Positions 1,819-55,481 of a DNA stretch of 64,000 bases are shown here, in pieces. The stretch is from IMG/VR virus record IMGVR_UViG_3300026549_000076, positions 5,444-69,443 of that record; one strand, given 5' to 3'. A model generated the notes under the pieces. It worked only from the letters and a program-made list of their open reading frames with translations, was not told where the DNA came from and searched no databases. Both the position numbers and the translations under genes were made by a program. The first letter of the stretch is position 1; each line of letters starts with the position of its first letter. The stretch is from a virus (lineage: Duplodnaviria > Caudoviricetes).

Positions 1819-3669
1819 TTAAACTTCATATAAATCAACAAACTCATCTTGAGTAAGTAAAGAAGTATCATTAAAGTCTCCTATCTTTGCATGCATAAGA
1901 TACTTAATAATCTCATCTGTTGTACCTCTCTTCTTTTTAAGAAGATAATTAATAACTTTCTTTTGAAAATCATCTGGTAAATCACAGAACTTTCTATCAG
2001 ATAATTCAGTCTCATTAAAATCTTCTCTAGGTACAATAGATTTAATATTTAAATCTGCAGGCATAATTTCAATCAAACCTGAATCAATACCTGATTTAAA
2101 CTCATTATAATAATCAATTGCATCCTCATCTGAATCAGCTCTAAATCTTTCTAATTCATTTGCATCATTAGTAATAATATACTGACAACCATGAGGTTCA
2201 ACAAAATTAAACTTCATAACTCTTAAGAAAGCATCTTGTTTAAGAGTAGTTGCATCCCAATACTTTTCAGTATCATCTTGAACTTCCTCTGCCTCTTTAT
2301 ATTCTGGATTATTAACATAAAACCATTTATATAAAAGATTATCTTCCTTACCTTGTTTCTTAAGTTCTTCTCCCATCTTCCTCATTTCATCATAACCCTT
2401 AGAAGAATCTTTACTACTAAACACTTTCAAAACCTTATCATTATCACCAGTATCAATAATTCTATATTCTCTTATACGCTTAGGAACTTTCTTCACTTCA
2501 GCTTCATAAATATTACTTACAAAATCCTCTCCATACATATCTTTAAGTTGATTATATATTACATCCCTAGGATCTGAATCAATTTCATAAGCTAAATCTT
2601 TAAATAAAGATGGATCTTCATGAATAGCTTTAAAAGTTAAATTTTCAGGAATCTTATTTAATTGATACTCCATTGGAGCTTCAATTCTCATCCAATCTCT
2701 AATTCTCATATTCTCAGGAGGTCTTAAAGATAATTCTAAAAGTTCATCTGGAACCTTATACCCATTATCATACATCGGATCATTTACATCAGTAGAATAT
2801 GAATCAATAATACTTTGTAAATTACCTGGTATAACATAAAAATCATCAGATTCATTTAGACCTCTATCTTTGTCTTTACCAATGATTGAATCATAGTCAG
2901 CTTCTTTCATATCTGTAGGTTTAATTGCAGCATATCTAGCATAAGAATAACCTTCAGGTTCAACTAAAATATGTGGACTAGAGGAATTATCTTTATTAAT
3001 AACTTCTATACAATAAAAACATCCATCAACACATCTACACTTTTTACCTAACTTCTTAATCCAATCATAATCTTTAGAAATAAGACTACTAGTAAAATCA
3101 TCATACTCTTCATTAGAAAGCTCTTTGGTTGCTACAACTTTAAAATAATCACTACCAATACCCCAAGTTTTAATATCATCTAAATTAACTGGTTTCCTAA
3201 CAAATTCAGCTCTCCCATCTACAGTAGATTTTTCAGCCTCATTAAAACCATCAGTACATGAGGTCTTACCACTCTTAAGTTGATAATAAATATCTAAGTA
3301 TCTTTTAAATTCAGAAGAATTTGGATCACACATAGACATAGCTGTTTTCATATCCTTAATTGCATCTTCAATAGTAGGATATTCTTTGACATCCCCATAT
3401 AAAGAAACTTTAACTTTCTTTTCATCTGATTCATCAGATTCCTCAAACATACTAAACAACGTTCCAGCAACCTTATTACGAACTTCCTTTTCATCCGAAT
3501 TAGGCATCTTAGATTGAACATCTTTAACTATAGAATTAAAAGTATCATCAGTAATAGAAGAAACCTTAGTACCATTAGGTAAATTCTTAGACTTAATAAC
3601 ATTCTTAATTACTTCAGTACTTAAATCTAAATTATCCGAATTCTTCTTAATAGCTTCATACAAATTCAT
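1819..3669 (-). CDS. Putative internal head (cargo) polyprotein with MNLY tag, multi-module
   Basis: Starts MNLYEAIKKN. Repeated hydrophobic-x-E|(A/S/T/E) motifs lie between distinct small modules. One module (FVRKP...ILVEPEGYSYARYAA) is recalled as DUF6329-like. Confidence 0.55.
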   Translation of the reverse strand: MNLYEAIKKNSDNLDLSTEVIKNVIKSKNLPNGTKVSSITDDTFNSIVKDVQSKMPNSDEKEVRNKVAGTLFSMFEESDESDEKKVKVSLYGDVKEYPTIEDAIKDMKTAMSMCDPNSSEFKRYLDIYYQLKSGKTSCTDGFNEAEKSTVDGRAEFVRKPVNLDDIKTWGIGSDYFKVVATKELSNEEYDDFTSSLISKDYDWIKKLGKKCRCVDGCFYCIEVINKDNSSSPHILVEPEGYSYARYAAIKPTDMKEADYDSIIGKDKDRGLNESDDFYVIPGNLQSIIDSYSTDVNDPMYDNGYKVPDELLELSLRPPENMRIRDWMRIEAPMEYQLNKIPENLTFKAIHEDPSLFKDLAYEIDSDPRDVIYNQLKDMYGEDFVSNIYEAEVKKVPKRIREYRIIDTGDNDKVLKVFSSKDSSKGYDEMRKMGEELKKQGKEDNLLYKWFYVNNPEYKEAEEVQDDTEKYWDATTLKQDAFLRVMKFNFVEPHGCQYIITNDANELERFRADSDEDAIDYYNEFKSGIDSGLIEIMPADLNIKSIVPREDFNETELSDRKFCDLPDDFQKKVINYLLKKKRGTTDEIIKYLMHAKIGDFNDTSLLTQDEFVDLYEV

Positions 3670-3681
3670 AAACTAAACCTC

Positions 3682-4344
3682 CTAACCTATCTGTGTAAAT
3701 TTCTTACACTTATTGCAAATATAACCATGTTTAGAAACACCTAGATAAGATGAACCATCAGGTTTAAATTTACTACCTGAATCTGATGAACAAGTACACC
3801 AAATATCTTCTGGATCTTTTATTGCATCTCGATAAGCTTTACCCTCAGGTAATTCCCAAACATCCTCTGGTTTAAATAAACCACTAGAAGTTAACTTTTT
3901 AGTAAATCTTGCATATTCTTTAGCAATATCATCTGAAATCTTAGACTTATTCTTCTCATGGTCTTTAGTAACTTTATTAACCGCTGCAGCCCAAGTAGGA
4001 TCATTATCCATAGTATGAATTTCAGCATCATTTATTGGTTTCACTTTGTAATCTTTAGAATCATCAAAAGTCATAGTTAAACCTGTCTTAGAACTAAGTT
4101 CAAAAATAATTCCATCATTAGAAAACTTATCATTACCTAAATCTTCTCCACCTTTAGAAAGAATAATCTTCTTTAAAGCATCTAACTCATCAGTACTAAT
4201 TTCCCTTGCAGGAAAATGAATATACCCATTATTTTGATAAAGAGCACCAACTAAATTATCATAGAACTCTAAATAAGAACTTTCAAAAGAATCTAACTCT
4301 ACAGATTCTTTCATATTATTTTTAATTGAATTATATAAATTCAT
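3682..4344 (-). CDS. MNLY-tag protein with C-terminal Zn-binding module
   Basis: Starts MNLYNSIKNNMKES. C-terminal WCTC...KHGYICNKC cluster. Confidence 0.5.
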   Translation of the reverse strand: MNLYNSIKNNMKESVELDSFESSYLEFYDNLVGALYQNNGYIHFPAREISTDELDALKKIILSKGGEDLGNDKFSNDGIIFELSSKTGLTMTFDDSKDYKVKPINDAEIHTMDNDPTWAAAVNKVTKDHEKNKSKISDDIAKEYARFTKKLTSSGLFKPEDVWELPEGKAYRDAIKDPEDIWCTCSSDSGSKFKPDGSSYLGVSKHGYICNKCKKFTQIG

Positions 4345-4345
4345 A

Positions 4346-5026
4346 TTAATCTACCTCCTCTTGATTAAGTAAATTAACTTCTTCATCACTAAAGAATAAA
4401 GACTCTCCATTATGATCAACTTTAGTCATAGCTCCATATTCAGTATCTATAATGATAATATCATCATCAAACTTATTAGGATCCCTACGATAAAAAATCT
4501 TTCCATCATAATCAAGAATAAATTCATATCCTAATTCTTCTAACTTATCTGCAAAGTTTAAATCATAATCTTTACCATCAGTAGAAATTCTCTTTAAATC
4601 AATCTCAGAAACTCTCTCAGCTTCATCTAAATCTTCTTTACCTTCTCGTCTAGCATTATTATCTACAATATCATCTAACCATCTAGCACCAACTTGAAAC
4701 TTAAGTATTGGAAGATTACCCATTTCAGTCCACATATCAAGTGGGATAGAAACAAAAGTTAAATTATCTGGATACTTATTACTTCCAGTAAGTTCATACT
4801 TATCATTAAATTCCTTACCTGACCACCAATAAATATCACATGGAACTTTAAAACCTTTAGACTCTTTAGTAAAGAAATCAACTACTTGTGATAAACTATC
4901 ATCATCTGAATTCAATCCTTCCCAAGTAAGAGCAGAACCACTCTCTAATTCTGAAATCTTATCAGAATCAGCATGAATAAGATTATATTTCTTAGTATTT
5001 GACTTAACTGCTTCATATAAATTCAT
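4346..5026 (-). CDS. MNLY-tag protein, two modules
   Basis: Starts MNLYEAVKSN. An internal LDEA site separates two segments. RBS AAGGTGG upstream. Confidence 0.5.
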   Translation of the reverse strand: MNLYEAVKSNTKKYNLIHADSDKISELESGSALTWEGLNSDDDSLSQVVDFFTKESKGFKVPCDIYWWSGKEFNDKYELTGSNKYPDNLTFVSIPLDMWTEMGNLPILKFQVGARWLDDIVDNNARREGKEDLDEAERVSEIDLKRISTDGKDYDLNFADKLEELGYEFILDYDGKIFYRRDPNKFDDDIIIIDTEYGAMTKVDHNGESLFFSDEEVNLLNQEEVD

Positions 5027-5050
5027 AAAAACACCACCTTAAAAGTATAC

Positions 5051-5068
5051 CTACTATATTAGACAAAA
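5051..5068 (-). promoter_or_regulatory. Candidate late promoter (variant TTTTGT-CTAATA-TAGTAG)
   Basis: Intergenic, directly upstream of the MNLY cluster. Variant of the motif that recurs at other operon starts. Confidence 0.4.
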
Positions 5069-5077
5069 AACAAGTAA

Positions 5078-6103
5078 TTAAACTATGCTAGAGTTAATTC
5101 CTTGTTTTATATTCTCCTCATTATTATCTATGATTTCTTCATCAACTTCCTCATTATTAGAAACAGAATTAGAAAGTCTCTTATCTTGTTGATTCTTGAA
5201 ATCAATTTCATTATTAAAATAATCATCTACATCTTGTTCTAAAACCTTCATATCATCAGCAAAAGCCTTCTTACTCATATTAAATTCATCCTTAAGAAAC
5301 TCATCAATAGAACCATCTGGATTCTTATTAAGATACTTACGAACTTCAGAACGTAAAGATTTAATAATGTCATGATCATCCAAGAATGAATGATGTTTAG
5401 CTTGATGTGCAAAATAGTCATTCATATAATCAGAAGGCTTATTTCTCCACTTAACAGCTCTATTCTGTTGCTTAATCTGCTTAGCATGATTAAGTTGTTG
5501 ATAATCATCATAATCTAAATCATTCAACATACGAAGATAATTATTGATATCTTTAACAACTTGCTTTCTAATAGTCCCATTTTCATAAAGATTCTTAACT
5601 ACAGCAATAAGATGTAAATCCAACGCACCAGATAAGGATTTAGAACCATCCTTATACTGTAAATTACGCTTAGGTTGTCTAGTCTCAGGTTCAATTTCAT
5701 AATTACCAACAGTTGCTAAATACGCTTCACCCCAATAAAGAAATGATTCACAATTACATTTAACTCTAAAATTATTCATAGTTAAAAGCCTTGATAAATC
5801 TTGTTCTGTAAAATCATTCCCTTCACCAACTAAATCACCAAACTGTAAGATATCGGGTGCTTCAATAAAAGCATAATGATATTTACCAGAACGACTTCTA
5901 GATTTAACTTTAAAATTTAAAGTACCATCCTCAGATAAACCAAAATAACGAACTCCTGTCTCAACATCTCTAGCACGATATGCTACACTTGGAGTATTAG
6001 TAACTGACTTATTATACAAATTCTTAAGATTAGCTTCATAAAGTGAAACAATAGTTTCTTCAGAAAGTTTACAGAAGTTATTATAAATAGTACTAATCCT
6101 CAT
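5078..6103 (-). CDS. SWIM-like zinc-finger protein
   Basis: FRVKCNCESFLYWG...LDLHLIAV resembles SWIM CxC...xxH. The N-terminal LSEE and LYEA motifs resemble processing sites. Confidence 0.5.
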   Translation of the reverse strand: MRISTIYNNFCKLSEETIVSLYEANLKNLYNKSVTNTPSVAYRARDVETGVRYFGLSEDGTLNFKVKSRSRSGKYHYAFIEAPDILQFGDLVGEGNDFTEQDLSRLLTMNNFRVKCNCESFLYWGEAYLATVGNYEIEPETRQPKRNLQYKDGSKSLSGALDLHLIAVVKNLYENGTIRKQVVKDINNYLRMLNDLDYDDYQQLNHAKQIKQQNRAVKWRNKPSDYMNDYFAHQAKHHSFLDDHDIIKSLRSEVRKYLNKNPDGSIDEFLKDEFNMSKKAFADDMKVLEQDVDDYFNNEIDFKNQQDKRLSNSVSNNEEVDEEIIDNNEENIKQGINSSIV

Positions 6104-6653
6104 TTATAACACTCCCCTCATCATAATAAATTCCTCTACGTAAGAAAACATTCTCAAGATTAGGATCCTTCTTATCCGCTAAAACTTTAACATTCTCTTT
6201 CTGATCAAACCTAGTAGGTACAACTCTACAAACACACTGATTAAGTTCTAAGTCAGTTCTAACTTCAACAATCGTAAATTGAGTTGTAGTGACTGAACCC
6301 TTATCAATAGTAACCTTAGATGACAATTCAATAATAGCTCCCTCATCTATAGCAATAGGTTTATTATTAATATCAAAATAAGTAATAAATAAAACAATAG
6401 GCAATTGAGATTGATCTTCAGTAAACCAACCATATTTAGTTAAAAGTTTTCTAGATGGATTAGTTTCTAAATGATACGCAACATCAACAGCATCTTTATA
6501 ATCATAAATCTTATCAGTACCATTAACTTTAAAAGACTTTACTTGATAAAATTTACCTAAACGACCTTGAACTTTAGCAGAAAGTACAAACTGCTTTCTC
6601 AAATACTCTTGAGCATCAAAGTTAGGTAATAAAGATCCTTTAGATTCACTCAT
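6093..6653 (-). CDS. Putative head completion/neck protein
   Basis: Start reassigned to MSESKG because of the RBS AGGAGTG. Beta-rich sequence, located in the head gene cluster. Confidence 0.35.
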   Translation of the reverse strand: MSESKGSLLPNFDAQEYLRKQFVLSAKVQGRLGKFYQVKSFKVNGTDKIYDYKDAVDVAYHLETNPSRKLLTKYGWFTEDQSQLPIVLFITYFDINNKPIAIDEGAIIELSSKVTIDKGSVTTTQFTIVEVRTDLELNQCVCRVVPTRFDQKENVKVLADKKDPNLENVFLRRGIYYDEGSVINED

Positions 6654-6663
6654 AATATCACTC

Positions 6664-6969
6664 CTATTCATATTTATCTGCATCTTCCTCAACCTTCTGT
6701 AAGTATGCTTCACGCTCACTTGATATTGGAATCTTACCTTTATCCTCTAAATCTCTAACTTTATCTAACTTTTCTATATATGCACCTGATCCTGAATTAT
6801 AACGCTCAAATATTTTCTCAGCGTCTACATTAGTTATCAAATAATCATATGCTTCCTTATATGTATTAAAATTCTTATATGATTCACTAAATCCATTGCT
6901 TTCAGGATATGAAACTACATAATATTTAGTATTTAATGCACTCTCTTTAATACTTTTATATAAATTCAT
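6664..6969 (-). CDS. MNLY-tag small protein
   Basis: Starts MNLYKSIKESAL. RBS GAGGTGG. Confidence 0.5.
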   Translation of the reverse strand: MNLYKSIKESALNTKYYVVSYPESNGFSESYKNFNTYKEAYDYLITNVDAEKIFERYNSGSGAYIEKLDKVRDLEDKGKIPISSEREAYLQKVEEDADKYE

Positions 6970-6984
6970 ACATCCACCTCATTC

Positions 6985-9771
6985 CTACTTCTTATACTTA
7001 TTAACAACATTCTTAACAATAGCATCCACTTGTTCCTCAGGTACAAAGGCACCTTGAATTCTAGTAGGACTTGTTGCACCAACAGGTTTATATAGCATAT
7101 CACCTTTACCTAACAACTTCTCAGCTCCACCTTGATCTAAAATAGTTCTACTATCAGTATTAGAAGCTGTAGAGAATGCTATTCTAGAAGGAAAATTAGA
7201 TTTAATAGTTCCAGTAACTACATCAGTAGAAGGTCTTTGAGTAGCAACAATCATATGAATACCTGCAGCTCTAGCCTTCTGAGTAATACGTTGAATAGAA
7301 GTCTCAACTGACTTACCTGCAACAGACATCAAGTCAGCTAACTCATCTATAACACAAACTATATAAGGCATATGAGGTAACTTATTCTCATGAGATTTAT
7401 TATAGTTATCTACTAAAGAATTATAACCTTTAATATCCTTAACACCAGTTCTATTAAATATAGTATATCGTTCATCCATTTCTTCAGTTAAATCCTTCAA
7501 AGCACTATCAGCCTCTTTAGCATCAGTAATAATTGGTCTAAGTAAATGAGGAACATTCTTATAAGAACTAAGTTCAACTTGCTTAGGATCGATTAAAACT
7601 AACTTAACATCATCTGGACTATATTGTTGAATCAAACTACAAATCATAGAATTGATTGCACTAGACTTACCTGAATTACCTGTAATAGTTATAAAACCAT
7701 TTCTACGTAAAACCCACATACCTGTAGAAGTAGTGAAACAATATTTATATTCATTAGATTTTACTAATATATCTATATTATCCTTACCATGAGAATTAAC
7801 AATTGATGTAAGACTTCTTCCATTAGATATATGTACACAATAACAAACAGACTTGTATGTATAATCTCCATTAGAATGTTTCTTACCTACACGATTATCC
7901 TCAGTTATACTTGATTTAAAACCTAAAGAACTAAATACAAATTGAATAAAATCTGCATCAGTTTTACAAGTACTAAAATAGCGTTTAGTAGACTTAGAAA
8001 CACACCCATCCCATTTACATACATTATCTGCAATAACCTCTAATTGATATTTATTACAATTATACCAAGAACTATCAAAATGTTTTATTCTAACAGGTGA
8101 ATCAAAATAGAATTCAGAATAACCATCAGATCTAACACGTTCATCATATTCTATATTTGCCTCTAACAAGATATTCCTTAATTCAATCTTCTTTCTATTC
8201 TTCTTCAGATTAATTCTACACCTAGAAGTATCATTAAAGAAATTACCATCTGCCATAACAGCCAGCATAACTTTAATACATGAATCTGATAAATCAATAC
8301 CTTCACCTTCATAATTAAAAGTATGTATAAATTTACCTGTAAAACCATTAACTGAATTAAAATGCATATCAGCAATTTCTTTCATAGTTCTATGATAAAG
8401 ATTACCTTTAGAAGTTATATAATAAACATTATGTTCTGGACTCAACATCATATTCATTCCATATTTAGGTTTAACATAATAGAAAATATCTGCTGATTCT
8501 TTAATAAACGCTTGTGGATACTCTAAAGTAGCTTTACCATCTTCATGATAAACTAAAACTTTATCTCCTTCTTCATATTCAGAAATTGGTTTCCAACCAA
8601 AACCATTAAAAAATTCTGTATCCTTATCTACACAACCTGTAGTACCACCTATAAGAACGTGTTGTAACTTAAGAATATCCGCTGATTGAGCATTACCATT
8701 AGTATCCTTACCTAAGGCAACAGCTAAACCTGACTTATCCATATCTTCAAGAACATCATCTAAAGATACTGCAGAAATCTCAGCATTAGGAACTTGAATA
8801 CCAATAGAATTCTTTCCAGTTATTGGAGTAACATAAACAGAAGTTACACCCAAAGTCATTGCAATCTCCTTAGAAAGATTACTTACATCATTAATACGAA
8901 CACCTGATCCTAAAGTAAATTCATACTGAGTAATACTAGGCCCAACAAGACCTCCAACATAAGAAACTTTAACTCCATAATTAGATAAAGTAGATTCAAT
9001 AAGTTCACCTATAGATTTTAAATCTGGAGTATTCTGAGGTTTTAAATTTGCTAAAAATTCTTTATATTCATCTGGAAGTACATTCTCATAAAAAGTCTTA
9101 TAAGAATCTCCCCCTTTATCTCCCTCAATTTTATCCATAACTACCCAATCCCTCATAGTTCTAAGTATACTTGAATCATTCTTAGCAGGTATAAGATTAA
9201 AACTATTTGCAGAAGAATAAACATAGTCTCCCTTTAGACTCTTAGCAACCTCTTGTTCTTCATCAGTTAAAGGAGTTCTTTCTCCTTGATCATCAGAAGA
9301 TTGAGAAAACTTAACTAAATCCTCATCAACCTCAGGCTCTTGTTTAGTAGACTTCTTATTATCTACTCCTGATGAAATATCCTTTCTAGGTTGAATTGCA
9401 CTATTAATCTCACTCATATTTAAACTAATAGCTTCATCAATGGATTTAGAATTAGAAACATCAACTGCACCTAAATCAATAGTCTTAGTTGCTAAAGATA
9501 ATCTCAAAAAGGCATTTGCATCATAATCACCAATATCTCGATTATAACTTTCAATACTTTCATGTGTAGTATTAACCTCCAAAGTACAAGGAATAGTTGT
9601 AGATTCATCTTTATACGTACCAGAAAACTTTACAGAAAAACGAGTTCTATATCTAGGCAAACCAGAACTAAAAGTAAATCCATATTTCTCAAAAACTGGA
9701 AATACTACTTTAGTAATAGAATTTAACATTTTATCAACTGACTGTGCAGCTTCCACTAACTTTAACTTCAT
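6985..9771 (-). CDS. ftsK: FtsK/SpoIIIE-family DNA translocase (soluble), intein-containing
   Basis: Alpha domain (GPSITQYE..GIQVPN), Walker A GTTG|SGKS split by an intein, LIDPKQVEL, Walker B VIDELADL, ATQRPS, GAEKLLGKGDML. Confidence 0.93.
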   Translation of the reverse strand: MKLKLVEAAQSVDKMLNSITKVVFPVFEKYGFTFSSGLPRYRTRFSVKFSGTYKDESTTIPCTLEVNTTHESIESYNRDIGDYDANAFLRLSLATKTIDLGAVDVSNSKSIDEAISLNMSEINSAIQPRKDISSGVDNKKSTKQEPEVDEDLVKFSQSSDDQGERTPLTDEEQEVAKSLKGDYVYSSANSFNLIPAKNDSSILRTMRDWVVMDKIEGDKGGDSYKTFYENVLPDEYKEFLANLKPQNTPDLKSIGELIESTLSNYGVKVSYVGGLVGPSITQYEFTLGSGVRINDVSNLSKEIAMTLGVTSVYVTPITGKNSIGIQVPNAEISAVSLDDVLEDMDKSGLAVALGKDTNGNAQSADILKLQHVLIGGTTGCVDKDTEFFNGFGWKPISEYEEGDKVLVYHEDGKATLEYPQAFIKESADIFYYVKPKYGMNMMLSPEHNVYYITSKGNLYHRTMKEIADMHFNSVNGFTGKFIHTFNYEGEGIDLSDSCIKVMLAVMADGNFFNDTSRCRINLKKNRKKIELRNILLEANIEYDERVRSDGYSEFYFDSPVRIKHFDSSWYNCNKYQLEVIADNVCKWDGCVSKSTKRYFSTCKTDADFIQFVFSSLGFKSSITEDNRVGKKHSNGDYTYKSVCYCVHISNGRSLTSIVNSHGKDNIDILVKSNEYKYCFTTSTGMWVLRRNGFITITGNSGKSSAINSMICSLIQQYSPDDVKLVLIDPKQVELSSYKNVPHLLRPIITDAKEADSALKDLTEEMDERYTIFNRTGVKDIKGYNSLVDNYNKSHENKLPHMPYIVCVIDELADLMSVAGKSVETSIQRITQKARAAGIHMIVATQRPSTDVVTGTIKSNFPSRIAFSTASNTDSRTILDQGGAEKLLGKGDMLYKPVGATSPTRIQGAFVPEEQVDAIVKNVVNKYKK
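7675..8634 (-). mobile_element. Intein with LAGLIDADG homing endonuclease in the FtsK Walker A motif (320 aa)
   Basis: Begins CVDKDTEFF and ends RRNGFITITGN followed by Ser. Removing it restores GGTTGSGKS. Contains LAVMADG and CKWDG motifs. Confidence 0.92.
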
Positions 9772-9782
9772 AATAAAACCTC

Positions 9783-9800
9783 CTCTAATTAATAAGAAAA
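9783..9800 (-). promoter_or_regulatory. Candidate late promoter TTTTCT-TATTAAT-TAGAG
   Basis: Immediately upstream of the ftsK RBS. Matches the recurring motif. Confidence 0.45.
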
Positions 9801-9909: not shown

Positions 9910-11796
9910 CTAGACCTCTCCTAAAGTTGTATCTTCTGGAGTACCATTATTTGTAGGAGGTTCTTCAGGTAAAGGAAGTAATCCTTCATCATTAGTCTCC
10001 TCTCCAGTAGAAGTCTCCTCGCCAAAGTCTTCCTCAGGCGCACCATTAACATTTATATCAACAGGATTATCTATTGTAGAACCTGATGGTAAAGGTTCAT
10101 GTTCATTACCTTCTTCTCCAGACTCTTCATCTTCACTCGGTACAAGATTTTGCATATCCTTGCCTTCATCCTCATTAATCTTATCTAATAACTCAGCATC
10201 AAGATAACGAGTAACAAGTAAATCACGTACACCTGTATACTTACCATCTTCAAAACTAATACCTAAATTATTAAGTGAAGTAATTGCTCTATCAAGAGCT
10301 TCTTGTTTAGCTTGTTCAAATTCAATTCTATCCAAAGCATCTTGATTATTAATCTCTGCAAAAACAACATTAAGATCTACCTTAGAATGATCAATACCTA
10401 ATAAAGTAAGATATTGAATAAAGATATCTTCAAGACCTTGAGATAGAATAGCAGTAAATTGTTGAATAGTTCTAAGATAACGAATATCCTGTCTTGCAGC
10501 AGAAGTATTAATTAATTGTCCAGACTCATCACCATAGATTAAAGTCTTAGGAACTCCTAAAGAACCAAGTAATTGTTCCCTAAAATAATCTAGAGGCTCC
10601 TGAGTCTTAATATCCATATCTCCACCTATAGCTTGAACATTAATTGCACCAACTCCATTACGAGTAGGAACTATAATAGAATCACCTAAAGGTATCTGAG
10701 TTTGAGCAGAACTATAATAATCCTTACGAACATCTACAGTTTCACGAGTAGTAAGTCTCTTCTTAAACTCTAAAATAAGATTATCAGTTTCTTTAGAACT
10801 CATTGCCCCAACATCTATTTGAAAAAGTCTATAAATAGAACTTCTAGTAAGTAAAGCAAGTAAAGTACAATCTTCAACAGTATTAAGCATAGACCATGGA
10901 GTAACAGCCTTATCTATAAAAGATTGTCCTAAAGGTACTTCATATAAAGTAGATACTATATCATCCGGATTAGCCTTAACTGAAATAGTTTTAGTATTAC
11001 CCCTAGAATTAATGAAAGTAGTTATGTTTCTAGGATTTAAAACCTTTACCGTATTATCTAAATCTAAATAGAAAACAGTAACTCCCTTATTCATAAAAGG
11101 AACTAATGAACTAGGAAGAACCTCAAAATAGTATCTACCTACAAGTTTAGAATCCTTCATCTTATCAACAGACAAATCTGAATAAGTATAATCAGAAGTA
11201 CTTGCATCAAAGGAATTCTTAATATCTGAACCAAAGTCAGTAAAATAAGTTTCATTTGCTTCAGAAAGAATCTTACCCTGAACATCAGATTCAAACAAAT
11301 TACGCTTAACATTATTAGAACCTTCAAACAATTTAATTTTTACTTCTTCATACTTATCTACAAAACCAAATCGTACAGAAACAACACCATCAGTAATGAT
11401 TCTGTAAAGAACTTGAGGTAAGATATCTAAAATATTAGAATTAGTTAATAAATAATCTAGCACATCATTAATTTTAGTAATGTCATCATCAGTAACATTG
11501 TCATCTATTTTATTTACATCTACTGAAAAAATTTCATGTGTAAGAACATCTTTATGTAAAGCATCTGATATCCACATATTAATTATCATTGCAATAGTCG
11601 CATCTTCTAACATAGACTTCTTAATTTCACTTGTCATTGTACGTGAAGCATTAAGTCTAAAACTAGATAAAGAAGCTACAAAATTATAATATGGTAAAGA
11701 AAACAAAGATGACATATCTAATTGAGTTTTGTTACTAGACTCATTTAAATTAGATGATTCATTTAATTTAGATTTACCTCGACCAAATAAACCCAT
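9910..11796 (-). CDS. Portal protein, T4 gp20-like
   Basis: LTRSSIYRLFQIDVG..., DYFREQLLGSLGVPK, YLRTIQQF. Acidic C-terminal tail. N-terminal LNES repeats. Confidence 0.85.
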   Translation of the reverse strand: MGLFGRGKSKLNESSNLNESSNKTQLDMSSLFSLPYYNFVASLSSFRLNASRTMTSEIKKSMLEDATIAMIINMWISDALHKDVLTHEIFSVDVNKIDDNVTDDDITKINDVLDYLLTNSNILDILPQVLYRIITDGVVSVRFGFVDKYEEVKIKLFEGSNNVKRNLFESDVQGKILSEANETYFTDFGSDIKNSFDASTSDYTYSDLSVDKMKDSKLVGRYYFEVLPSSLVPFMNKGVTVFYLDLDNTVKVLNPRNITTFINSRGNTKTISVKANPDDIVSTLYEVPLGQSFIDKAVTPWSMLNTVEDCTLLALLTRSSIYRLFQIDVGAMSSKETDNLILEFKKRLTTRETVDVRKDYYSSAQTQIPLGDSIIVPTRNGVGAINVQAIGGDMDIKTQEPLDYFREQLLGSLGVPKTLIYGDESGQLINTSAARQDIRYLRTIQQFTAILSQGLEDIFIQYLTLLGIDHSKVDLNVVFAEINNQDALDRIEFEQAKQEALDRAITSLNNLGISFEDGKYTGVRDLLVTRYLDAELLDKINEDEGKDMQNLVPSEDEESGEEGNEHEPLPSGSTIDNPVDINVNGAPEEDFGEETSTGEETNDEGLLPLPEEPPTNNGTPEDTTLGEV

Positions 11797-26355: not shown

Positions 26356-27804
26356 TTAATTGTGAGTAATTGTTAACTTAGCAAAGAACTTAGGATTTAA
26401 AGTTTTCTTAGCCATCATAGTAGCTAATGAACTTGTATTTCTAAAGTCTTCATATTGTAATAATTGAGTTTGAACTACTGGCATATATTCACCAACAGCA
26501 TATGAACCAGTAAATTCAGATCCTTTATAAGTTAAAATACATAAATCAGTATTTTGGAAAGGATTCTCAATTAAAGTAATACCTTTATAAGTACCAATTA
26601 CATGGATACCAACTGGATTAGCTTCTTCTTGAGAAGTGAATCCATCAAGGTTACGAGCTAAGTATGCTCCATTAGTACCTAAGATACCAACGTTTGGTCT
26701 AATTTTTCTAGTTGCATTAAACATTAATTGTTGTAATTGAACTAGACGAAGACCAAATGATTGCATATAATCTCTTTCACTATAGTAACCAGTTGGAGTC
26801 ATTTCAAATGTTAAAGCTATACCACTAGCATTAGCAGCTTTAATAAAGTCTTGATATACTAAAGAATCTATTTCAGCAACTAATTCATTAGCAGCTCCTT
26901 CACCAAGTAAATCTTTAAGATCAACATTTTGACTTCTTAATAAGTTAAATGCTGCAAAAGTACTATATTCATAATTTAATGTATAAGCTTTTGCATTTAA
27001 GATTAACTTAGTAGTTTCTAATTTTAATTTAGGAACTTTAACTGGTGCGATTTGGTTGTTGTAACTATAAGCTACAGTACCATCAGTAACTGCTAATGTA
27101 GTAGAAGTTAATAAACCAGTAGTGTAATCTACAGTAGCAACTACAGTAGATGAACCAGTCTTAGTAATGTTACCATTACCATCATCTTCATAAGTATCAT
27201 TACCAGAAGTGATTACAATACCATCAGAAACTGCTGTAATATCATAATTAGCATTAAATGAATCAACACCAGATGCTTGTCCTTTTGGTACAATTGGAGC
27301 AAATTCAAATTGATATGTTCCAGCTGCAGCAACATCAAAAGTTTCAGCATCAATTACTTCTGAAGCATATTTAGATGCAGATTCAACTTTAGAATCTTCA
27401 ACCCAATAACGATCATAAGTATTTAAGACATCACCTTTCTTGATTCCACCTTTATTAGAATCATATTTATAAGCTAAGTAGTAAACTACACTTGTTTCTT
27501 GTCCCATTGCAAAAGTTAATGTAGATTGAGATAAAGTTGATTTAGCCCAAGTACAAATTACTAAGTTTAAGAATTCTGCTTTCTTAGCAATATCAGTAAC
27601 TTGAGTTCCTTCAGCTTCATTCATCATCATTAAATCAGAAACATTGTTAATTACTGTAGCAAGTTTAACTTTATCAAATTGAGATAAAGTTCTTCCGCTA
27701 GATTCTTTAAGAGCTTTATCTACAGCGGAAACTAATCTTTCTTGAGAGCGGATTGTGTTTTCTCCTTCTTTAAGAAAACGTTGAGTTAATTGTGCCTCAT
27801 TCAT
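26356..27804 (-). CDS. Major capsid protein, T4 gp23-like
   Basis: Start MNEAQ (RBS AGGAGAGG). MGQETSVVYYL, KAYTLNYEYSTFAAFNL..LLGEGAANELVAEID, YMPVVQT. Probable propeptide ending at MNE|A. Confidence 0.9.
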   Translation of the reverse strand: MNEAQLTQRFLKEGENTIRSQERLVSAVDKALKESSGRTLSQFDKVKLATVINNVSDLMMMNEAEGTQVTDIAKKAEFLNLVICTWAKSTLSQSTLTFAMGQETSVVYYLAYKYDSNKGGIKKGDVLNTYDRYWVEDSKVESASKYASEVIDAETFDVAAAGTYQFEFAPIVPKGQASGVDSFNANYDITAVSDGIVITSGNDTYEDDGNGNITKTGSSTVVATVDYTTGLLTSTTLAVTDGTVAYSYNNQIAPVKVPKLKLETTKLILNAKAYTLNYEYSTFAAFNLLRSQNVDLKDLLGEGAANELVAEIDSLVYQDFIKAANASGIALTFEMTPTGYYSERDYMQSFGLRLVQLQQLMFNATRKIRPNVGILGTNGAYLARNLDGFTSQEEANPVGIHVIGTYKGITLIENPFQNTDLCILTYKGSEFTGSYAVGEYMPVVQTQLLQYEDFRNTSSLATMMAKKTLNPKFFAKLTITHN

Positions 27805-27922
27805 ATAACAAACCTCTCCTTTTAAATAATATTTGAAGACCATCATTCTCCTAGTCCGCAGATACATAAAACGATTAAACTCCGAATCATTTTACTAGTA
27901 TAACTAATAAAATAATACTCTT

Positions 27923-34578: not shown

Positions 34579-35676
34579 CTATTCTCCTTTCTTTGAATTA
34601 TTTACTGAATAAAGTATATCTCTAAATTTAGATGTAGCTTTATCTTTATCTTCAAAGATTTCAGCTTCATCTAACATACTAGTTTCAGAATTGAAATTTC
34701 TTCCTACAATAAAGACTCTAGAATTATCTACCTTATCTGCTTCTATCATATAGATACTTCCAGTAGGTGACATTCTAAGGATATTGTAAGATTTAACTTC
34801 ACATTCCTCTAAAGGTTCTTCTTCAACTTCTACTTCCTCAACTTCTTCAGTTGGTGGAACTAAAGTATCAATAGCACCTTGAACTAATTCTTTACATTTA
34901 TCTGGATCTATACTTCCTTCATCATTTAAAATAGAAATGATTTCATTAAGTTTAGATACAGCATCTGTAATAGGATCAGATTCAACAACTTCATCTGAAA
35001 CTTCCTCAGTTGTAATCTCATTATGTATAGGAACCTTCTTTCCTTCATCACCTTCAGAAAGTTTCTTATCTTCTAAATAACTTCTAGCTTCATCCTCAGT
35101 AGTAAAGTAATGTCCTTGTCCCCAATAAAGCTTATCATCTTCAGTTAAACCAGGAGCCCAAGCGACAACAAAAGGTTGATAACCTGCATTACGTTTAACT
35201 AAAATATAATCAGCACCCTTGTCTAAATCCAAGATTTCAACTGATCCAGCTCCATCAGATTCTAAAGAATCACCAACTTTGAAATTAGCACTCCAAAATT
35301 TACTACCATCTTCTGCAGATTCTTTAACAGAATCTTTAGAATTACACTCTTCACAATCTTTACCTTCATAATCTGCTTTATCAGATTCTTCTTCAAGAGG
35401 TGTATCCTCAGTAACAGGTTTTTCAACTTCAGAAGTAACTTCTTCTGCAACTGGAGTAGTAACTTCAGGTACAATAGGAGTTTCCTCAACTTTGTTATTA
35501 TCTATCACAATATTAACATCTGTAGAATTACCTTCATTAGAAACATTAACTTCAGTAGATTCATGAAGTTTAGTTCTAGTGTTACTTCTAGGTTTTAACT
35601 TTCTTGAAGATTTAGTCATAGACTCATGAAGTTTAAATTCTCTATAATCATCATTCAATGCTTTATATAAATTCAT
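34579..35676 (-). CDS. Acidic MNLY-tag protein (prohead core or internal protein candidate)
   Basis: Starts MNLYKALND. Multiple LHES, VKES and LSEG sites. Embedded PFVVAW...WGQGHYF module. Confidence 0.5.
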   Translation of the reverse strand: MNLYKALNDDYREFKLHESMTKSSRKLKPRSNTRTKLHESTEVNVSNEGNSTDVNIVIDNNKVEETPIVPEVTTPVAEEVTSEVEKPVTEDTPLEEESDKADYEGKDCEECNSKDSVKESAEDGSKFWSANFKVGDSLESDGAGSVEILDLDKGADYILVKRNAGYQPFVVAWAPGLTEDDKLYWGQGHYFTTEDEARSYLEDKKLSEGDEGKKVPIHNEITTEEVSDEVVESDPITDAVSKLNEIISILNDEGSIDPDKCKELVQGAIDTLVPPTEEVEEVEVEEEPLEECEVKSYNILRMSPTGSIYMIEADKVDNSRVFIVGRNFNSETSMLDEAEIFEDKDKATSKFRDILYSVNNSKKGE

Positions 35677-44518: not shown

Positions 44519-44662
44519 CTAATCTAAATTCTCTGGATCCGCATATTTATCACCATGATTTAAATATAAATCATATAAATATTTCATATAAGCATCATTA
44601 TCTTTATCTGCGTCTCCTTTAAAATCACTATATGCTTTATCCTCATAAAAATTATTCTGCAC
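44519..44662 (-). CDS. Possible small protein (47 aa), not in the ORF track
   Basis: GTG start with a weak AAGGA RBS. MQNNFYEDKAYSDFKGDADKDNDAYMKYLYDLYLNHGDKYADPENLD fills the gap exactly. Confidence 0.4.
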   Translation of the reverse strand: MQNNFYEDKAYSDFKGDADKDNDAYMKYLYDLYLNHGDKYADPENLD

Positions 44663-45623
44663 TTAAATTATCCTTGAAATAATCAAAAGTAAATTCACAA
44701 ATTTTGGAAATACTAGAAAAATCAAATAAAGCATCTGCCTTACCAACAGGACCAGATTTTGCAAACTTTTTAGTAACTGCATCTGTAAAATCTTTATACT
44801 CTTCAAGTCTATCTACTTCTGGACGAGTACCATAATAATTATATTTTAAACCAAACACTCCTTCAGCTTTACCTGGAACATTGGCTAGTACAGTAAACCA
44901 ACATGCTTTCTTATTAGGAATCTTAATAGTTAAAATATTTTTAGACATCCCTGTAACTCCTATAGGAACACCTGCATTAGTAAATTCATCTAAAAATTTA
45001 GTTACAATAGTTGCTAAGTCATGTTGCACTGTATCAACACTAGAATTTTTATTCTTATCTATAAGAGAATCTACTTTACTTCTAAATTCTTCTGGTGACA
45101 TACGCCCTATAAAAGTCTCAGAATCTAAAGTTTTATTTATCTTAAATACCTCACCTGTAGCCAAACCATAAGCAAAAGAAAAACCAGGTAAGTCTTTAAT
45201 ATTTGATACATTAGCAAAATTACCTAAACCATAATGATAAGCTTTAACAAATTCTAAATCACAATCTAAATCTTTAAAAGCTTTCTTAATTCCTAACTTA
45301 GCACGCCTTATATCATCATGTAAATCCTTCCTCAATCTATCAAGATCTTCTTGTTCTTCACGTTCCCTATCCTCATCAGTTTTAGACATCTCTTCCTTAG
45401 CAAGAGATTTCAAATCCTTTTTAGCAGAAGCTACAGAATAAGAATCACCTATTTCCATAACAATATCACTATTCTTCCCAAAATCTGTACCTGTCATATA
45501 AGCATGCATTAATTCCTCTAAATCATCTGCAGTCCTACAAGAAGAAACCTCTTTATAAATACTTTCCCAATCAGTAGTATCTGCTTCATTTAAATTATTT
45601 TTAATAGCTTCAAATAAATTCAT
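44652..45623 (-). CDS. MNLF-tag protein
   Basis: Starts MNLFEAIKNNLNEA. Confidence 0.55.
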   Translation of the reverse strand: MNLFEAIKNNLNEADTTDWESIYKEVSSCRTADDLEELMHAYMTGTDFGKNSDIVMEIGDSYSVASAKKDLKSLAKEEMSKTDEDREREEQEDLDRLRKDLHDDIRRAKLGIKKAFKDLDCDLEFVKAYHYGLGNFANVSNIKDLPGFSFAYGLATGEVFKINKTLDSETFIGRMSPEEFRSKVDSLIDKNKNSSVDTVQHDLATIVTKFLDEFTNAGVPIGVTGMSKNILTIKIPNKKACWFTVLANVPGKAEGVFGLKYNYYGTRPEVDRLEEYKDFTDAVTKKFAKSGPVGKADALFDFSSISKICEFTFDYFKDNLSAE

Positions 45624-45635
45624 AATAGAACCACC

Positions 45636-46199
45636 TTAATTAACTAATTTCTTTGCTTCATCTAAAGTAAGAATTTTATCACTAGTATAAGAATTATCAA
45701 AAAGTTTATTCTGACAATCCTCACAATAACCAGTCTTAATAAATTCTCTTTCTAAAGGATTTAAATCTGGAAAAATATCCTGGATAAAACCACCATCAGA
45801 AACATACTTATTATACTTAGCCGAATCTACATACATAATATGTTCCTTACCACACATAGGACATACTCTAGATACACCAGTATCCTTATTCACCATTGCT
45901 ACACGAAGTTCATTATCTATATTTATTTTTAAATTCTCAAATTCTTTATCTGACATTTTACCTAAATTATTTACATTAAACTTAAGTCTATTAATTTCAT
46001 TTCCTGATCTATCCTTAATACTGTACTCCATAAAATCATCATCACCTAAAGAAGAACCACACCAACTACCTACTAAACCACCAGATCTAATCTTTATTTT
46101 TTCTAATTCTCTAAATCTATCACTACTACGTTCAAAATCTTCTTCTGTATAATCATTTAAATCAGTACCATGTTTCTTAATAGATTCATACAAATTCAT
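45636..46199 (-). CDS. MNLY-tag protein with C-terminal Zn finger
   Basis: Starts MNLYESIKKH. CPMC...IQDIFPDLNPLEREFIKTGYCEDC. Confidence 0.55.
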   Translation of the reverse strand: MNLYESIKKHGTDLNDYTEEDFERSSDRFRELEKIKIRSGGLVGSWCGSSLGDDDFMEYSIKDRSGNEINRLKFNVNNLGKMSDKEFENLKINIDNELRVAMVNKDTGVSRVCPMCGKEHIMYVDSAKYNKYVSDGGFIQDIFPDLNPLEREFIKTGYCEDCQNKLFDNSYTSDKILTLDEAKKLVN

Positions 46200-46213
46200 A
46201 ATATCACCACCAA

Positions 46214-47179
46214 TTAAAAATTACCTACAACAGTTTCCCAGAATTCATCAGTAGTAGAATCAAAATCTTCATTCCTTAATTGATACATAACAACTTGACA
46301 AAATCTTCTCCAAACTTCTTCTTGATAAAATTCATCTAAATCATCTGCCATAGAAGAAATAAAGCCACTATGACTACTATACTTATCCTTCAAGAAATCC
46401 TTAAAACCTTCTTCTTTAACAGTTCTTTCAAGAACATCTTTAAACTCAGAAGGACTCACAGAAACAGTAAAATCTAGTTCATCAGTTGAATAATTATAAT
46501 ACTTAGGATGATAAACTGAAGGATTACTTACCTTAGCACTAGGAAAAACTTTTTTAATATAATTCTCTACAATAGGAACTCCAAATTGAATAACAACTTT
46601 ATCTAAATCCTCCATAGTAGGTTGTTCCTCTTCTGGAACATCTTGATTAATATAATCACTCCAAATGTAATCTTCTCTTCCATAAGTACCAACATCTAAC
46701 ACAGGTAAAACTTCTGTATTAATTTCAAAGGTAGTACTAGAATCATCTGCCTCGCAAAGTGAGGATTCATGTAAATTATTATCAACCAAAGTATTAACAA
46801 AAGAAGCTAAAGAGTACGCACTTGGATAACTCCATTTAAAATCCAACATAATGTAACTCTCATTAGAAAGCCCACCTCCATTAACTTTATCAATAGAACT
46901 AGGTATAACCTTACCTACAAAGAAATCTGAATCAATTGATGCAGTTCCTAACTTATCAAAGTTATCACAATATTCTACATCAACTCCATCTTTAGAGAAA
47001 CGATAATGTCCATACTTAGCACTACTATCATCATAGCTCCATCCAAAATCCTTGAAATTTTTAATTAATTCCTCTACATAGTCATGCATAAGTTTTCCAT
47101 ACTTTTCATCATACTCAGAATCTTCACCCCAAAGAGTACCTTCTTTAAGATTAAATTTAATTGTTTTAAATAAATTCAT
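46214..47179 (-). CDS. MNLF-tag protein, two modules
   Basis: Start set at MNLFKTIKFNLKEG (RBS GAGGTG). Internal LHES/LCEA boundary. Second module HPKYYNYSTD..SSHSGFIS. Confidence 0.55.
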   Translation of the reverse strand: MNLFKTIKFNLKEGTLWGEDSEYDEKYGKLMHDYVEELIKNFKDFGWSYDDSSAKYGHYRFSKDGVDVEYCDNFDKLGTASIDSDFFVGKVIPSSIDKVNGGGLSNESYIMLDFKWSYPSAYSLASFVNTLVDNNLHESSLCEADDSSTTFEINTEVLPVLDVGTYGREDYIWSDYINQDVPEEEQPTMEDLDKVVIQFGVPIVENYIKKVFPSAKVSNPSVYHPKYYNYSTDELDFTVSVSPSEFKDVLERTVKEEGFKDFLKDKYSSHSGFISSMADDLDEFYQEEVWRRFCQVVMYQLRNEDFDSTTDEFWETVVGNF

Positions 47180-47191
47180 AAAGTAACACCT

Positions 47192-47209
47192 CACTATTAA
47201 ATAAGAAAA
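47192..47209 (-). promoter_or_regulatory. Candidate late promoter TTTTCT-TATTTAA-TAGTG
   Basis: Heads the MNL cluster embedded in the replication region, directly after a terminator. Confidence 0.5.
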
Positions 47210-53227: not shown

Positions 53228-55147
53228 CTACAGTAAATTAATGAAACTTTGAGTATCTTTAGTTCTCATTGATGAATAAATCGCATCTGCATCAACCAAA
53301 GCATTATGAACTGAACCACAAACAGCATCAGTAAGACCTTTATCACCAACAGAACCATCAGTAAACTGTGCAGGGTGATCTACCTTATGTTTATCTCTAT
53401 ACCAAATCAAATTAAATAATTCTTCCTTATATCTTCTAACATTTGGATGTTTAATTCTTTCAGAGAAATAAAGTTGAGTTAAATCAGTATAAGCTTTATC
53501 ATCTCTATCTAAAGACAATCTATCTACATTAAAATTATGTATCTTTAAATCCTGAACAGCTTCCTCAGAAGCATAAGAGTCAAAAGTAACCTTACCAATA
53601 GTAAGATGTAAAGTATCTCTTAAATAATAACAAATACTTCTTAACTTCTTTAAATCAATCTGTTCTGGCTTCTTAGGTGGAAGAATTCTCATCATCCATT
53701 CTACAGTAACATACTTATCTAAAGTACCATCCTCTCTAGGAACCACCTGAACATAACTACATGCCACACCAGCTTCATCAGTAGTAATAGACTGGTCAAA
53801 ATGTAAATATCTTGGAAGTTCTGGATGTTGAGGTTTATAACCTTCACTAAAATAAGATTGAATAGTTCTAACATCAACAACATTAGTAGAAATTGTAATA
53901 TCATCTTGAATAAAAACACTACCTAAAGTCGCAGCCTTCTGATAATACTTATCAGAAGTAAATAATCTACCTTGAGGCGCAACAACAACCGATGCAATAT
54001 CCTGTAAGGCTTGAATAAGATTAGTTTGAAACTCACCTAAGAAATCAATTGGTACTTCAACAAAATCTTCTTGAAAAGACTTATCTAACTCTTTATACGC
54101 AACAGTAGGATCCTTAGATTTAAAAGTCATAGGTTGCATATACTTAGTAACCAAATAGTCATTAAAGAATCTTACATCTTCAACAATTTGAGGATCAAGA
54201 ATATTAGATCCTTTAAAAACTAAAAAATGTTTATCAGAATAAGTTCCTTTAGGCTTAACTGTCCAAAGAGTCTCTTTAATAATATAACAATGTGGATTAG
54301 ACTCATTTCTCTTAATTAGTTGTGAAACAAAACCTGATTCATAAGTAGGTGAAGATAAAACTATATTCAAAGAGTGATTAATACCATTTACCATAAATCT
54401 AGACTTAGCTCTGTTTCTAATAGAAACATAAAGAGATTGAGCTCTAGACAAAGCTTGACCATCAACAGAACTATTAGTAACACCATAGAAGTCACCTTCA
54501 TCAACAACAGACAAAATAACATCAGTACCAATAACTTGTTTAGATTGTGAACCTGAAGTAATAGCCATATTCCTTTCAGGCCAATCTATATCATAAGATC
54601 TTTTAGTATTAGGTAAGAAATAGTCTCTAAAATAAGGAATTGAAAGTAACATATTTCTTAACTGTGCATAACCTGTATTCTCAGCAACTTCCCTAGTAAT
54701 AGAAAAATAAACCATAAGTAACTTCTTAGAAGTCATTAAATTGTACAAAGGTCTAATATCTGAATAACAAGATAATTCATATAACTTACGCAACAAAATT
54801 ACATTAGCACAACTGGTTTTACCTGAACCTAAACTCGCTAACATAATAATTTCATCTATATAATCTTCTTCATCTCTATCTTCATCAAAAATAGAAATCA
54901 AATGTTCTTTGTACTTAGGATACAAAGTATAACATAAATCCCCTATATAATAATCAGAATTAACCCACTCCTCTATAGGAACTATAGGTCTCAATAAAAC
55001 TGCTCTAGTTTGAGTAGAAATAGTAGAAATTTCTTCTAAAAGTTTCTTAGTCTGACTATCTAAAACCTTCGTCTTAGGTTTAGCTTTAACGGTGGACTTA
55101 CGCTTTCTGACCTTCTTCTCCTTCGTCTTCAAAGAGTTTTCTTTCAT
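53228..55147 (-). CDS. Terminase large subunit
   Basis: SLGSGKT (Walker A), VVDEGD (Walker B), VLSSP, nuclease YLHFDQS, VTFDSY, HKVDHP...KGLTDAV. Confidence 0.88.
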   Translation of the reverse strand: MKENSLKTKEKKVRKRKSTVKAKPKTKVLDSQTKKLLEEISTISTQTRAVLLRPIVPIEEWVNSDYYIGDLCYTLYPKYKEHLISIFDEDRDEEDYIDEIIMLASLGSGKTSCANVILLRKLYELSCYSDIRPLYNLMTSKKLLMVYFSITREVAENTGYAQLRNMLLSIPYFRDYFLPNTKRSYDIDWPERNMAITSGSQSKQVIGTDVILSVVDEGDFYGVTNSSVDGQALSRAQSLYVSIRNRAKSRFMVNGINHSLNIVLSSPTYESGFVSQLIKRNESNPHCYIIKETLWTVKPKGTYSDKHFLVFKGSNILDPQIVEDVRFFNDYLVTKYMQPMTFKSKDPTVAYKELDKSFQEDFVEVPIDFLGEFQTNLIQALQDIASVVVAPQGRLFTSDKYYQKAATLGSVFIQDDITISTNVVDVRTIQSYFSEGYKPQHPELPRYLHFDQSITTDEAGVACSYVQVVPREDGTLDKYVTVEWMMRILPPKKPEQIDLKKLRSICYYLRDTLHLTIGKVTFDSYASEEAVQDLKIHNFNVDRLSLDRDDKAYTDLTQLYFSERIKHPNVRRYKEELFNLIWYRDKHKVDHPAQFTDGSVGDKGLTDAVCGSVHNALVDADAIYSSMRTKDTQSFINLL

Positions 55148-55481
55148 CCGCCTCACCCACTCTTAATAAAATAGCACTCAAACGTTGTTGAGTAATATGA
55201 AAATATCTGACAGTATCAGCTACCACAGTAGCACTGTCAGAATGCTTCATGTAATATCTATACACTTCAATATTATAAAGTATATGAAAAACTTTTTGTC
55301 TACTTGGCACAGTTAAAGTTGTACCTGCAAAAAGATCTAAAAATTTGACAAAGTCATCCTCAGATTTAAAGAAGTCTAATAAAAGAACTAACTTATCTTT
55401 ATACACAGGTAACATTTTCAATAAAAGAATTAAATCATCATAGTTTAATTCTTTTGCTTGTGATAATTGTCCAGCTTCCAT
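55098..55481 (-). CDS. Mor-like transcription activator candidate
   Basis: FVKFLDLFAGTTLTVPS resembles the Mor GG..YIP signature. C-terminal HTH-like segment TVRYFHITQQRLSAIL. Confidence 0.55.
   Translation of the reverse strand: MEAGQLSQAKELNYDDLILLLKMLPVYKDKLVLLLDFFKSEDDFVKFLDLFAGTTLTVPSRQKVFHILYNIEVYRYYMKHSDSATVVADTVRYFHITQQRLSAILLRVGEADERKLFEDEGEEGQKA

Follow-up and report, generated by a model that had tools for sequence, protein, structure and literature searches.

What does a tailed phage that already encodes a conventional packaging terminase do with a DNA motor of the cellular FtsK type? The question is raised by IMG/VR virus record IMGVR_UViG_3300026549_000076, a 69.4-kb viral contig (G000) from an uncultured gut-type phage with a T4-like head; the contig has an estimated completeness of ~48% (CheckV), a GC content of ~30%, and nearly all of its genes on the minus strand. 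The DNA analyzed here, referred to as the window, is a 64-kb stretch of that contig. It contains an unbroken open reading frame (ORF) for a 928-residue protein, which we call the FtsK ORF, next to a T4-type portal gene (Table 1). To our knowledge, annotations of FtsK motors in phages go back about twenty years, and no such motor has been assigned a role. In searches of PHROGs, the FtsK ORF matched the "FtsK/SpoIIIE-like protein" families phrog 1358 (8e-94) and 3551; 563 GenBank phage records matched it as well, and its 90%-identity cluster lists 13 alleles of 928 amino acids (aa), itself included. The analyses below show that the product is an alpha-beta DNA translocase of the FtsK/SpoIIIE type, adapted to a phage and made as a precursor that an intein interrupts. 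It is a soluble phage motor without the gamma domain, which has acquired a phage-specific N-terminal module (N-module) by gene fusion and hosts an intein in its Walker A motif. Membrane-less FtsK proteins of phages have been described before; the present protein differs from them in its N-module and its intein.

The motor was delimited with Pfam and by alignment with Pseudomonas aeruginosa FtsK (PDB 2iuu; expectation value (E) 8e-86), in which chain residues 86–224 correspond to aa 246–379 of the precursor and residues 225–461 to aa 700–920. Pfam FtsK_SpoIIIE (PF01580) was matched at aa 691–848 (1e-52), the Walker B motif CVIDE starts at aa 806, and the ATQRP motif of the arginine-finger region starts at aa 843. 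Sixteen relatives show no variation in the residues of these motifs, nor in those of Walker A after removal of the intein. A sequence-only reading of the locus had reported intact alpha and beta motor motifs; all of them are present, but they are intact only after splicing, with Walker A being split by the intein. The remainder of that description (no transmembrane segments, no gamma domain, a position next to the portal) was correct. Kyte-Doolittle hydropathy averaged over 19 residues peaks at 1.32, in the Walker B strand, and no Pfam match to FtsK_4TM (PF13491) was obtained in the FtsK ORF, which leaves the protein without a predicted membrane helix. The C terminus lies 8 residues past the end of the motor alignment. 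A gamma domain supplied by a separate gene was considered and rejected, as PF09397 was not found anywhere on the 69-kb contig in a search that was positive in 10 of 14 control genomes. The gamma winged-helix domain of FtsK reads FtsK-orienting polar sequences (KOPS) or SpoIIIE recognition sequences (SRS) and activates XerD. Because the protein has neither a membrane anchor nor gamma, FtsK biology leads one to expect a hexameric motor that would load on double-stranded DNA without regard to sequence. The earlier proposal of a sequence-independent DNA pump fits an alpha-beta protein of this kind, and a soluble motor that would not read DNA sequence is supported by the domain content taken together with published FtsK biology. 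A phylogenetic tree of the motors had an outgroup branch length of 3.09 and is consequently not reliably rootable, so no order of gain and loss is drawn from it.

The intein splits Walker A exactly. Its first residue, Cys380, follows GGTTG, and its last three residues, TGN, end at Asn699 and are followed by SGKS, of which Ser700 is the +1 residue. Residues 224 and 225 of 2iuu flank the insertion site, and the FtsK chain aligned without a gap across the insert. Natural intein-less alleles (P0003–P0008; 605–608 aa, 77–97% identical) lack precisely aa 380–699. Members of the same intein family (46–51% identical, with a CVD.DTEFF start and a GN end) occupy Walker A of metagenomic RecD-like helicases and primase-helicases, again between G and [CST]GK[ST], and one copy sits in a ribonucleotide reductase; nine relatives in other host proteins have the same terminal residues. 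Within the element, LAGLIDADG_3 (E 0.0016) and Hint (E 0.12) were detected below the Pfam cut-offs, and the PDB returned no sequence match. The penultimate residue is Gly, giving a Gly-Asn end in place of the usual His, and block B reads S-P-E-H instead of T-x-x-H. Inteins without the penultimate His are known, so the Gly-Asn end does not exclude splicing activity. The GC content of the intein is 27.5%, compared with 32–33% in the flanking coding sequence. From the intein anatomy and the natural intein-less alleles, we infer that the 320-aa element would splice out of the Walker A loop and rejoin GGTTG to SGKS in a 608-aa protein. Because the intein splits Walker A, the motor could work only after protein splicing; the sequence-only reading alluded to this in no other way than by the words "the spliced protein." The element thus resembles the P-loop inteins of phage and cellular nucleoside triphosphatases in running from Cys1 to Asn, in its +1 residue (Ser, Cys, or Thr in that group), and in its exact insertion between G and [CST]GK[ST]; it differs in having an FtsK motor as its host, in the penultimate Gly, and in a weakly recognizable endonuclease domain. 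No report of an intein in a phage FtsK was found in the literature, and none was present in the aligned phage matches.

In front of the motor lies a region that the sequence-only reading had called a novel N terminus of ~240 residues. It is not unique to this protein, but the family to which it belongs is uncharacterized and consists of a globular domain of ~125 aa followed by a flexible linker. When aa 1–245 were searched against 1.84 billion cluster representatives, 21 proteins matched. FtsK fusions aside, these are small proteins of 131–257 aa that align from residue 1, the exceptions being P0128 and P0137, long proteins matched over short stretches. The family has at least 30 members, and no context was found for it other than as a free-standing protein or fused to FtsK motors, all of which are without gamma. 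A profile of the N-module was positive on every gamma-less relative of the motor (P0001–P0013, P0021, P0022, and P0027) and weakly positive on P0039 and P0041, and it was positive on none of the 28 gamma-bearing relatives; N-module and gamma are therefore mutually exclusive among ~45 membrane-less relatives. The free-standing proteins are real genes and not fragments produced by contig ends, all of them ending a few residues beyond a common (V/I)(Y/F)P motif. Between the tail of the linker and that of the free-standing family there is weak homology (E 0.0076 for the whole protein).

Other searches with the N-module returned little. The N-domain had no match in Pfam, PHROGs, GenBank phages, or the ESM Atlas, and no paralogue of it was found elsewhere on the contig. 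Scans of viral contigs with the whole protein and with the free-standing member P0126 gave no close relative; one metagenome scan and one genome scan were dominated by cellular FtsK and contained no N-module locus. The N-domain alignments were too variable to serve pattern scans, and a scan with a degenerate DNA pattern for MKIKLVE gave three matches, none of them family members. An FtsK carrying this N-module was not found in the literature. AlphaFold gave a confident alpha/beta fold for aa 12–128 (mean predicted local distance difference test score (pLDDT) 82.7), but Foldseek returned nothing at E ≤0.001 in PDB or BFVD. The best VIA-align match, to the Fbxo7/PI31 FP dimerization domain (Z 7.1, root-mean-square deviation 3.4, 99 residues), is within the noise range of the tool, as are the next matches, to type III secretion chaperones (Z 4.5–4.8). 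In a full-length model of the intein-less allele P0003, the confident N-domain is followed by disorder at aa 128–248 (pLDDT 30–45) and then by the motor.

The relationship between N-module and motor is illustrated by G001, a 123.5-kb IMG/VR contig (~86% complete) that was the sole related genome compared for context. There, a free-standing homologue of the N-domain (29% identical, E 1e-7) is encoded 2.4 kb upstream of a gamma-bearing FtsK. The occurrence of the two as a fusion in some phages and as separate nearby genes in G001 suggests that N-module and motor work together. The gamma-bearing soluble FtsKs of related uncultured phages (within P0014–P0048, the G001 protein included) have motors 65–71% identical to that of the FtsK ORF and are likewise membrane-less, and G001 shares the T4-type head; they differ in retaining gamma and in starting with a full 13-residue leader and a short helical N-region in place of the N-module. 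Among better-known phages, the Cluster J mycobacteriophages encode an FtsK that lacks the N-terminal membrane domain and has a divergent gamma (2013, PMC3706429). The FtsK-like proteins of Cluster J (Omega gp203, Thibault gp178), of Bacillus phages (Cherry gp22, SP-15 gp161), and of PHROG families 1358 and 3551 are also membrane-less motors of tailed phages, but none of them carries the N-module, and those of Cluster J keep the gamma-like tail and are encoded in early or DNA-metabolism regions.

The N-module begins with a short peptide that is itself conserved. The FtsK ORF starts with MKLKLVE followed by Ala8, and 30 of the 31 members of the N-module family retain L5, E7, and A, S, or T as the eighth residue; residues 1–6 have pLDDT values below 50 and are predicted to be disordered. 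Similar peptides recur on other proteins of both genomes. Eight G000 proteins begin with MNL(Y/F), usually with (L/I/M)-x-E before a small residue 5–18 residues on. The DNA upstream of the leader genes is not conserved, placing the signal at the peptide level. A start of the form M-(S/N)-(L/I)-x-x-x-I-x-x-N-L-x-E is found on 21 of the 28 gamma-bearing sister FtsKs (e.g., MSLNRNIIKNLFE) and on tagged small proteins of G000 (window positions 1819–6969, 34579–35676, and 44652–47194) and G001 (e.g., MSIFNSIQRNLKE, followed by S). When the capsid protein is read from a re-called ATG that is supported by a ribosome-binding site, it begins with MNEAQLTQRFLKE followed by G, which is the same leader pattern. 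A loose version of the motif occurs at 11 N termini in G000 against 1.4 expected, and at 14 against 3.8 in G001. The FtsK ORF lacks the full 13-residue leader and matches its last heptad only. A 141-aa ORF situated between baseplate genes (G000 5182–5607, equivalent to window −261 to 164, minus strand) starts with (MF)MKVKLKLLEA and so resembles MKLKLVEA; its remainder did not match the N-domain profile (E 0.54).

The precedent for such leaders comes from T4, whose head proteins carry propeptides of 10–20 residues; these direct the proteins to the capsid and are removed by cleavage after Glu (PMC5694885). Those of IPI–III, Alt, and gp24 are, like the peptides described here, short N-terminal sequences with L/I-x-E before a small residue, and they occur on unrelated proteins encoded in arrays near head genes. 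The present case differs in consisting of a sequence pattern alone and in the 7-residue version on the FtsK ORF. For the protease that would make such a cut, PF03420 had no match on the ~48%-complete contig, but its controls were also silent; the prohead protease of G001 has no homologue on the G000 contig. Taken together, the leader evidence lends circumstantial support to processing by a head protease.

The positions of the domains and of the neighboring genes discussed next are collected in Table 1.

Table 1. Features of the FtsK ORF and of related genes (window coordinates)
Feature	Position	Strand	Basis or remark
FtsK ORF, unbroken; soluble FtsK/SpoIIIE-type translocase	6985..9771	minus	928-aa precursor; spliced product would be 608 aa
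N-terminal MKLKLVE, then Ala8; candidate T4-type L-x-E site	9751..9771	minus	motif match
Globular N-domain, ~aa 8–128; alpha/beta family, free-standing or fused to gamma-less FtsK	9388..9750	minus	profile, model
Acidic linker, aa 129–245; weak F-x-x-N-V-L-P motif (~aa 225–232)	9037..9387	minus	pLDDT 30–45; 25 D+E vs 17 K+R
FtsK alpha domain, aa 246–329	8785..9036	minus	PF17854, 4e-20; aligned to 2iuu
Beta (RecA-like) domain, first part; ends with first half of Walker A, GGTTG (aa 375–379)	8635..8784	minus	2iuu alignment
Intein, 320 aa (aa 380–699), Cys1 to terminal Asn, then Ser+1; LAGLIDADG-like middle	7675..8634	minus	boundaries, intein-less alleles, 2iuu
Beta domain, remainder, aa 700–928 and stop codon; SGKS, Walker B CVIDE, ATQRP; no gamma after	6985..7674	minus	Pfam, 2iuu alignment
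Shine-Dalgarno sequence GAGGAGG, 7 nucleotides ahead of the FtsK ATG	9779..9785	minus	overlapped by the promoter motif of the sequence-only reading (9783–9799)
T4-type portal, directly upstream of FtsK	9910..11796	minus	PF07230, 1e-30
First downstream MNL(Y/F)-leader gene, MNLYKSIKE then S	6664..6969	minus	leader pattern
gp23-like capsid gene	26356–27867	minus	likely true start 27804, an internal ATG preceded by AAAGGAGAGG
Large terminase, divergent; conventional packaging motor	53228..55156	minus	25% identical to SP-15 TerL (E 2e-34); 42% to G001 homologue

The terminase ORF was missed by sequence searches of Pfam, PHROG, and PDB and was recognized through its homologues in Bacillus phage SP-15 and G001. 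It carries a GSGKT Walker A motif, and Walker A, Walker B, and the nuclease region are conserved in G000, G001, and SP-15. The earlier claim that a conventional terminase is encoded elsewhere was thereby confirmed and, because this separate large terminase is present on the contig, the idea of FtsK as the sole packaging motor was rejected. As had also been stated, the FtsK ORF of G000 stands between the portal gene upstream and MNL(Y/F) genes downstream. The gap between portal and FtsK genes is 138 nucleotides, and no terminator was predicted in it. A candidate late promoter proposed ahead of the FtsK ORF is not supported: with 12 occurrences where 9.8 would be expected, its motif shows no enrichment, and the copy at 9783 runs into the ribosome-binding site.

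Linkage to the portal was followed in G001, in the Thorneviruses SP-15 and LIS04, and in Cluster J. Between G001 and G000, the portals are 32% identical and the FtsK motors 65–67% identical. In G001 the gene next to the portal is an unrelated ORF (at least 600 aa), and the gamma-bearing FtsK is at the opposite end of the contig, whose ends do not overlap. There the FtsK gene lies ~4 kb upstream of the genes for the prohead protease (head maturation) and capsid, with small ORFs only between; a thymidine kinase and a metallophosphoesterase are encoded between the free-standing N-domain gene and FtsK. The region is mixed in content, of late-gene type, and a few kilobases upstream of head protease and capsid. 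The strongest matches to the portal from cultured phages were those of SP-15 and LIS04. These two have ribonucleotide reductase genes in the slot after the portal, and their distant FtsK-like genes (31–35% identical) are >100 kb from it. The SP-15 gene is beside a helicase and near a glycosylase, and the Cluster J FtsK is near Ku, both in DNA-metabolism or early regions. Strict linkage to the portal is therefore not conserved in the relatives compared.

Part of the FtsK neighborhood is nevertheless common to G000 and G001, as two nearby ORFs on the minus strand have G001 homologues. The first, of 341 aa (5078–6103; phrog_4315), has its homologue in the C-terminal part of a DUF5662 protein of 513 aa, encoded next to the free-standing N-domain gene of G001; the second, of 208 aa (6093–6719), has its homologue in a gene that G001 carries between those for capsid and sheath. 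Outside the viruses, the nearest FtsK motors (49–52% identical) are from metagenome-assembled genomes of uncultured gut Bacilli, Tenericutes, and Erysipelotrichaceae of humans and ruminants, a possible pointer to the group of hosts that this phage of 30% GC infects.

For the function of the protein, the explanation we favor, with about an even chance of being right, is that of an accessory motor working on phage DNA in the infected cell, late in infection; it is distinct from the packaging motor, and membership in the virion is not assumed. The spliced 608-aa protein would consist of the globular N-domain of ~125 aa with its exposed conserved N-peptide, a flexible acidic linker of ~120 aa, and the motor. 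This layout mimics that of cellular FtsK, in which an anchor and a long linker precede the motor, except that a soluble module substitutes for the anchor; by this analogy, the N-module would decide the location of the pump, setting its working site through a phage or host partner. The cellular FtsK/SpoIIIE proteins of P. aeruginosa and Escherichia coli (PDB 2iuu, 2iut, and 2ius) share with it the alpha and beta domains, Walker A and B, ATQRP, and the order of targeting module, linker, and motor; they differ in having their own 4TM membrane domain and gamma winged helix, where the phage protein has a soluble N-module and a Walker A intein. The pump may be tethered near the head-assembly machinery and may clear, untangle, or feed replicated, branched DNA to the terminase. 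The context is compatible with such a role, FtsK being placed between the portal and tagged genes in G000 and ~4 kb upstream of head genes in G001. Several points weigh against this reading. Structural and replication genes are interleaved genome-wide, as exemplified by a C5 methyltransferase near the capsid gene and a DnaB-like helicase (G000 3011–4483, outside the window) beside baseplate-wedge genes, which makes gene neighborhood weak functional evidence either way. The synteny comparison covered G001 (motor 65–67% identical) and the other phages named above, whereas the closest relatives are 77–97% identical. The fold matches of the N-module, all in the noise range, indicate no partner. 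Finally, the head-gene context and the leader-like N terminus fit equally well a protein that travels in the virion.

That alternative, which we consider possible though unlikely, takes the N-peptide to be a capsid-targeting propeptide of T4 type: the protein would be loaded into the core of the prohead, cut after Glu7 by the prohead protease, ejected with the DNA, and, in the next cell, assemble on the entering genome, either pulling it in or protecting and clearing it. It draws on the enrichment of leaders of the form I-x-x-N-L-x-E at the N termini of both genomes, on their presence on the re-called G000 capsid protein and on most gamma-bearing sisters, on the match of MKLKLVE-Ala to the last heptad of the leader, at a site that is conserved and predicted to be disordered, on the T4 precedent, and on FtsK standing first in an array of tagged genes in G000 and G001 alike. 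Against this, the FtsK ORF does not have the full leader of its neighbors, M-K-(I/L)-K-L starts are frequent in AT-rich genomes, and the search for a prohead protease on the incomplete contig found none, albeit with silent controls. A hexameric ATPase would have to unfold, traverse the tail, and reassemble; the literature searched contained no account of an FtsK carried inside the virion of a tailed phage; and the loss of strict portal linkage counts here too. The fuller scheme, in which a motor loaded into the prohead through leader or N-module and trimmed by the protease is ejected to drive ATP-dependent import or clearing in the new host, with the intein gating its timing, is rather unlikely. 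We give little credence to a pump directed at the host, which would act on the host chromosome or on DNA transfer at the spore or septum, for instance by moving phage DNA into forespores or disturbing segregation. The 49–52% identity of the motor to the FtsKs of uncultured gut Bacilli, Tenericutes, and Erysipelotrichaceae suggests that it was captured from a host-like genome, and a role in sporulation has been suggested for homologues in Bacillus phages (PMC4464726), but the protein lacks both the gamma domain that would read polarity motifs of the host and the anchor that would take it to the septum, its N-module is confined to phage-like sequences, and its gene stands in a late or structural neighborhood. 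Very improbable is a role in packaging itself, as a further or alternative ATPase at the portal in the manner of the FtsK-HerA enzymes of membrane-containing phages. The gene does adjoin that of the portal, and FtsK-HerA ATPases package DNA in PRD1-like viruses (cited in PMC7824862). An enzyme of the PRD1 P9 or A32 type would, however, serve as the sole motor of a virus without a terminase, whereas here a large terminase is present and conserved in G000, G001, and SP-15; in addition, portal adjacency is lost in G001, and the protein is a true cellular-type FtsK and not of A32/P9 type.

The clade described here offers three footholds for understanding phage FtsK proteins. The mutual exclusion of gamma and N-module, together with the separate N-module gene of G001, predicts a physical partnership between module and motor, and since alleles both with and without the intein exist in nature, motor and splicing can be compared cleanly. 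Through the leader peptide, the FtsK family is connected with the head-cargo system of phages that have T4-type heads. Were the protein packaged, it would be the first case of a tailed phage delivering an ATP-driven DNA translocase and would bear on how large genomes finish their entry; if it is not, it would provide a well-defined accessory DNA pump for the study of concatemer processing.

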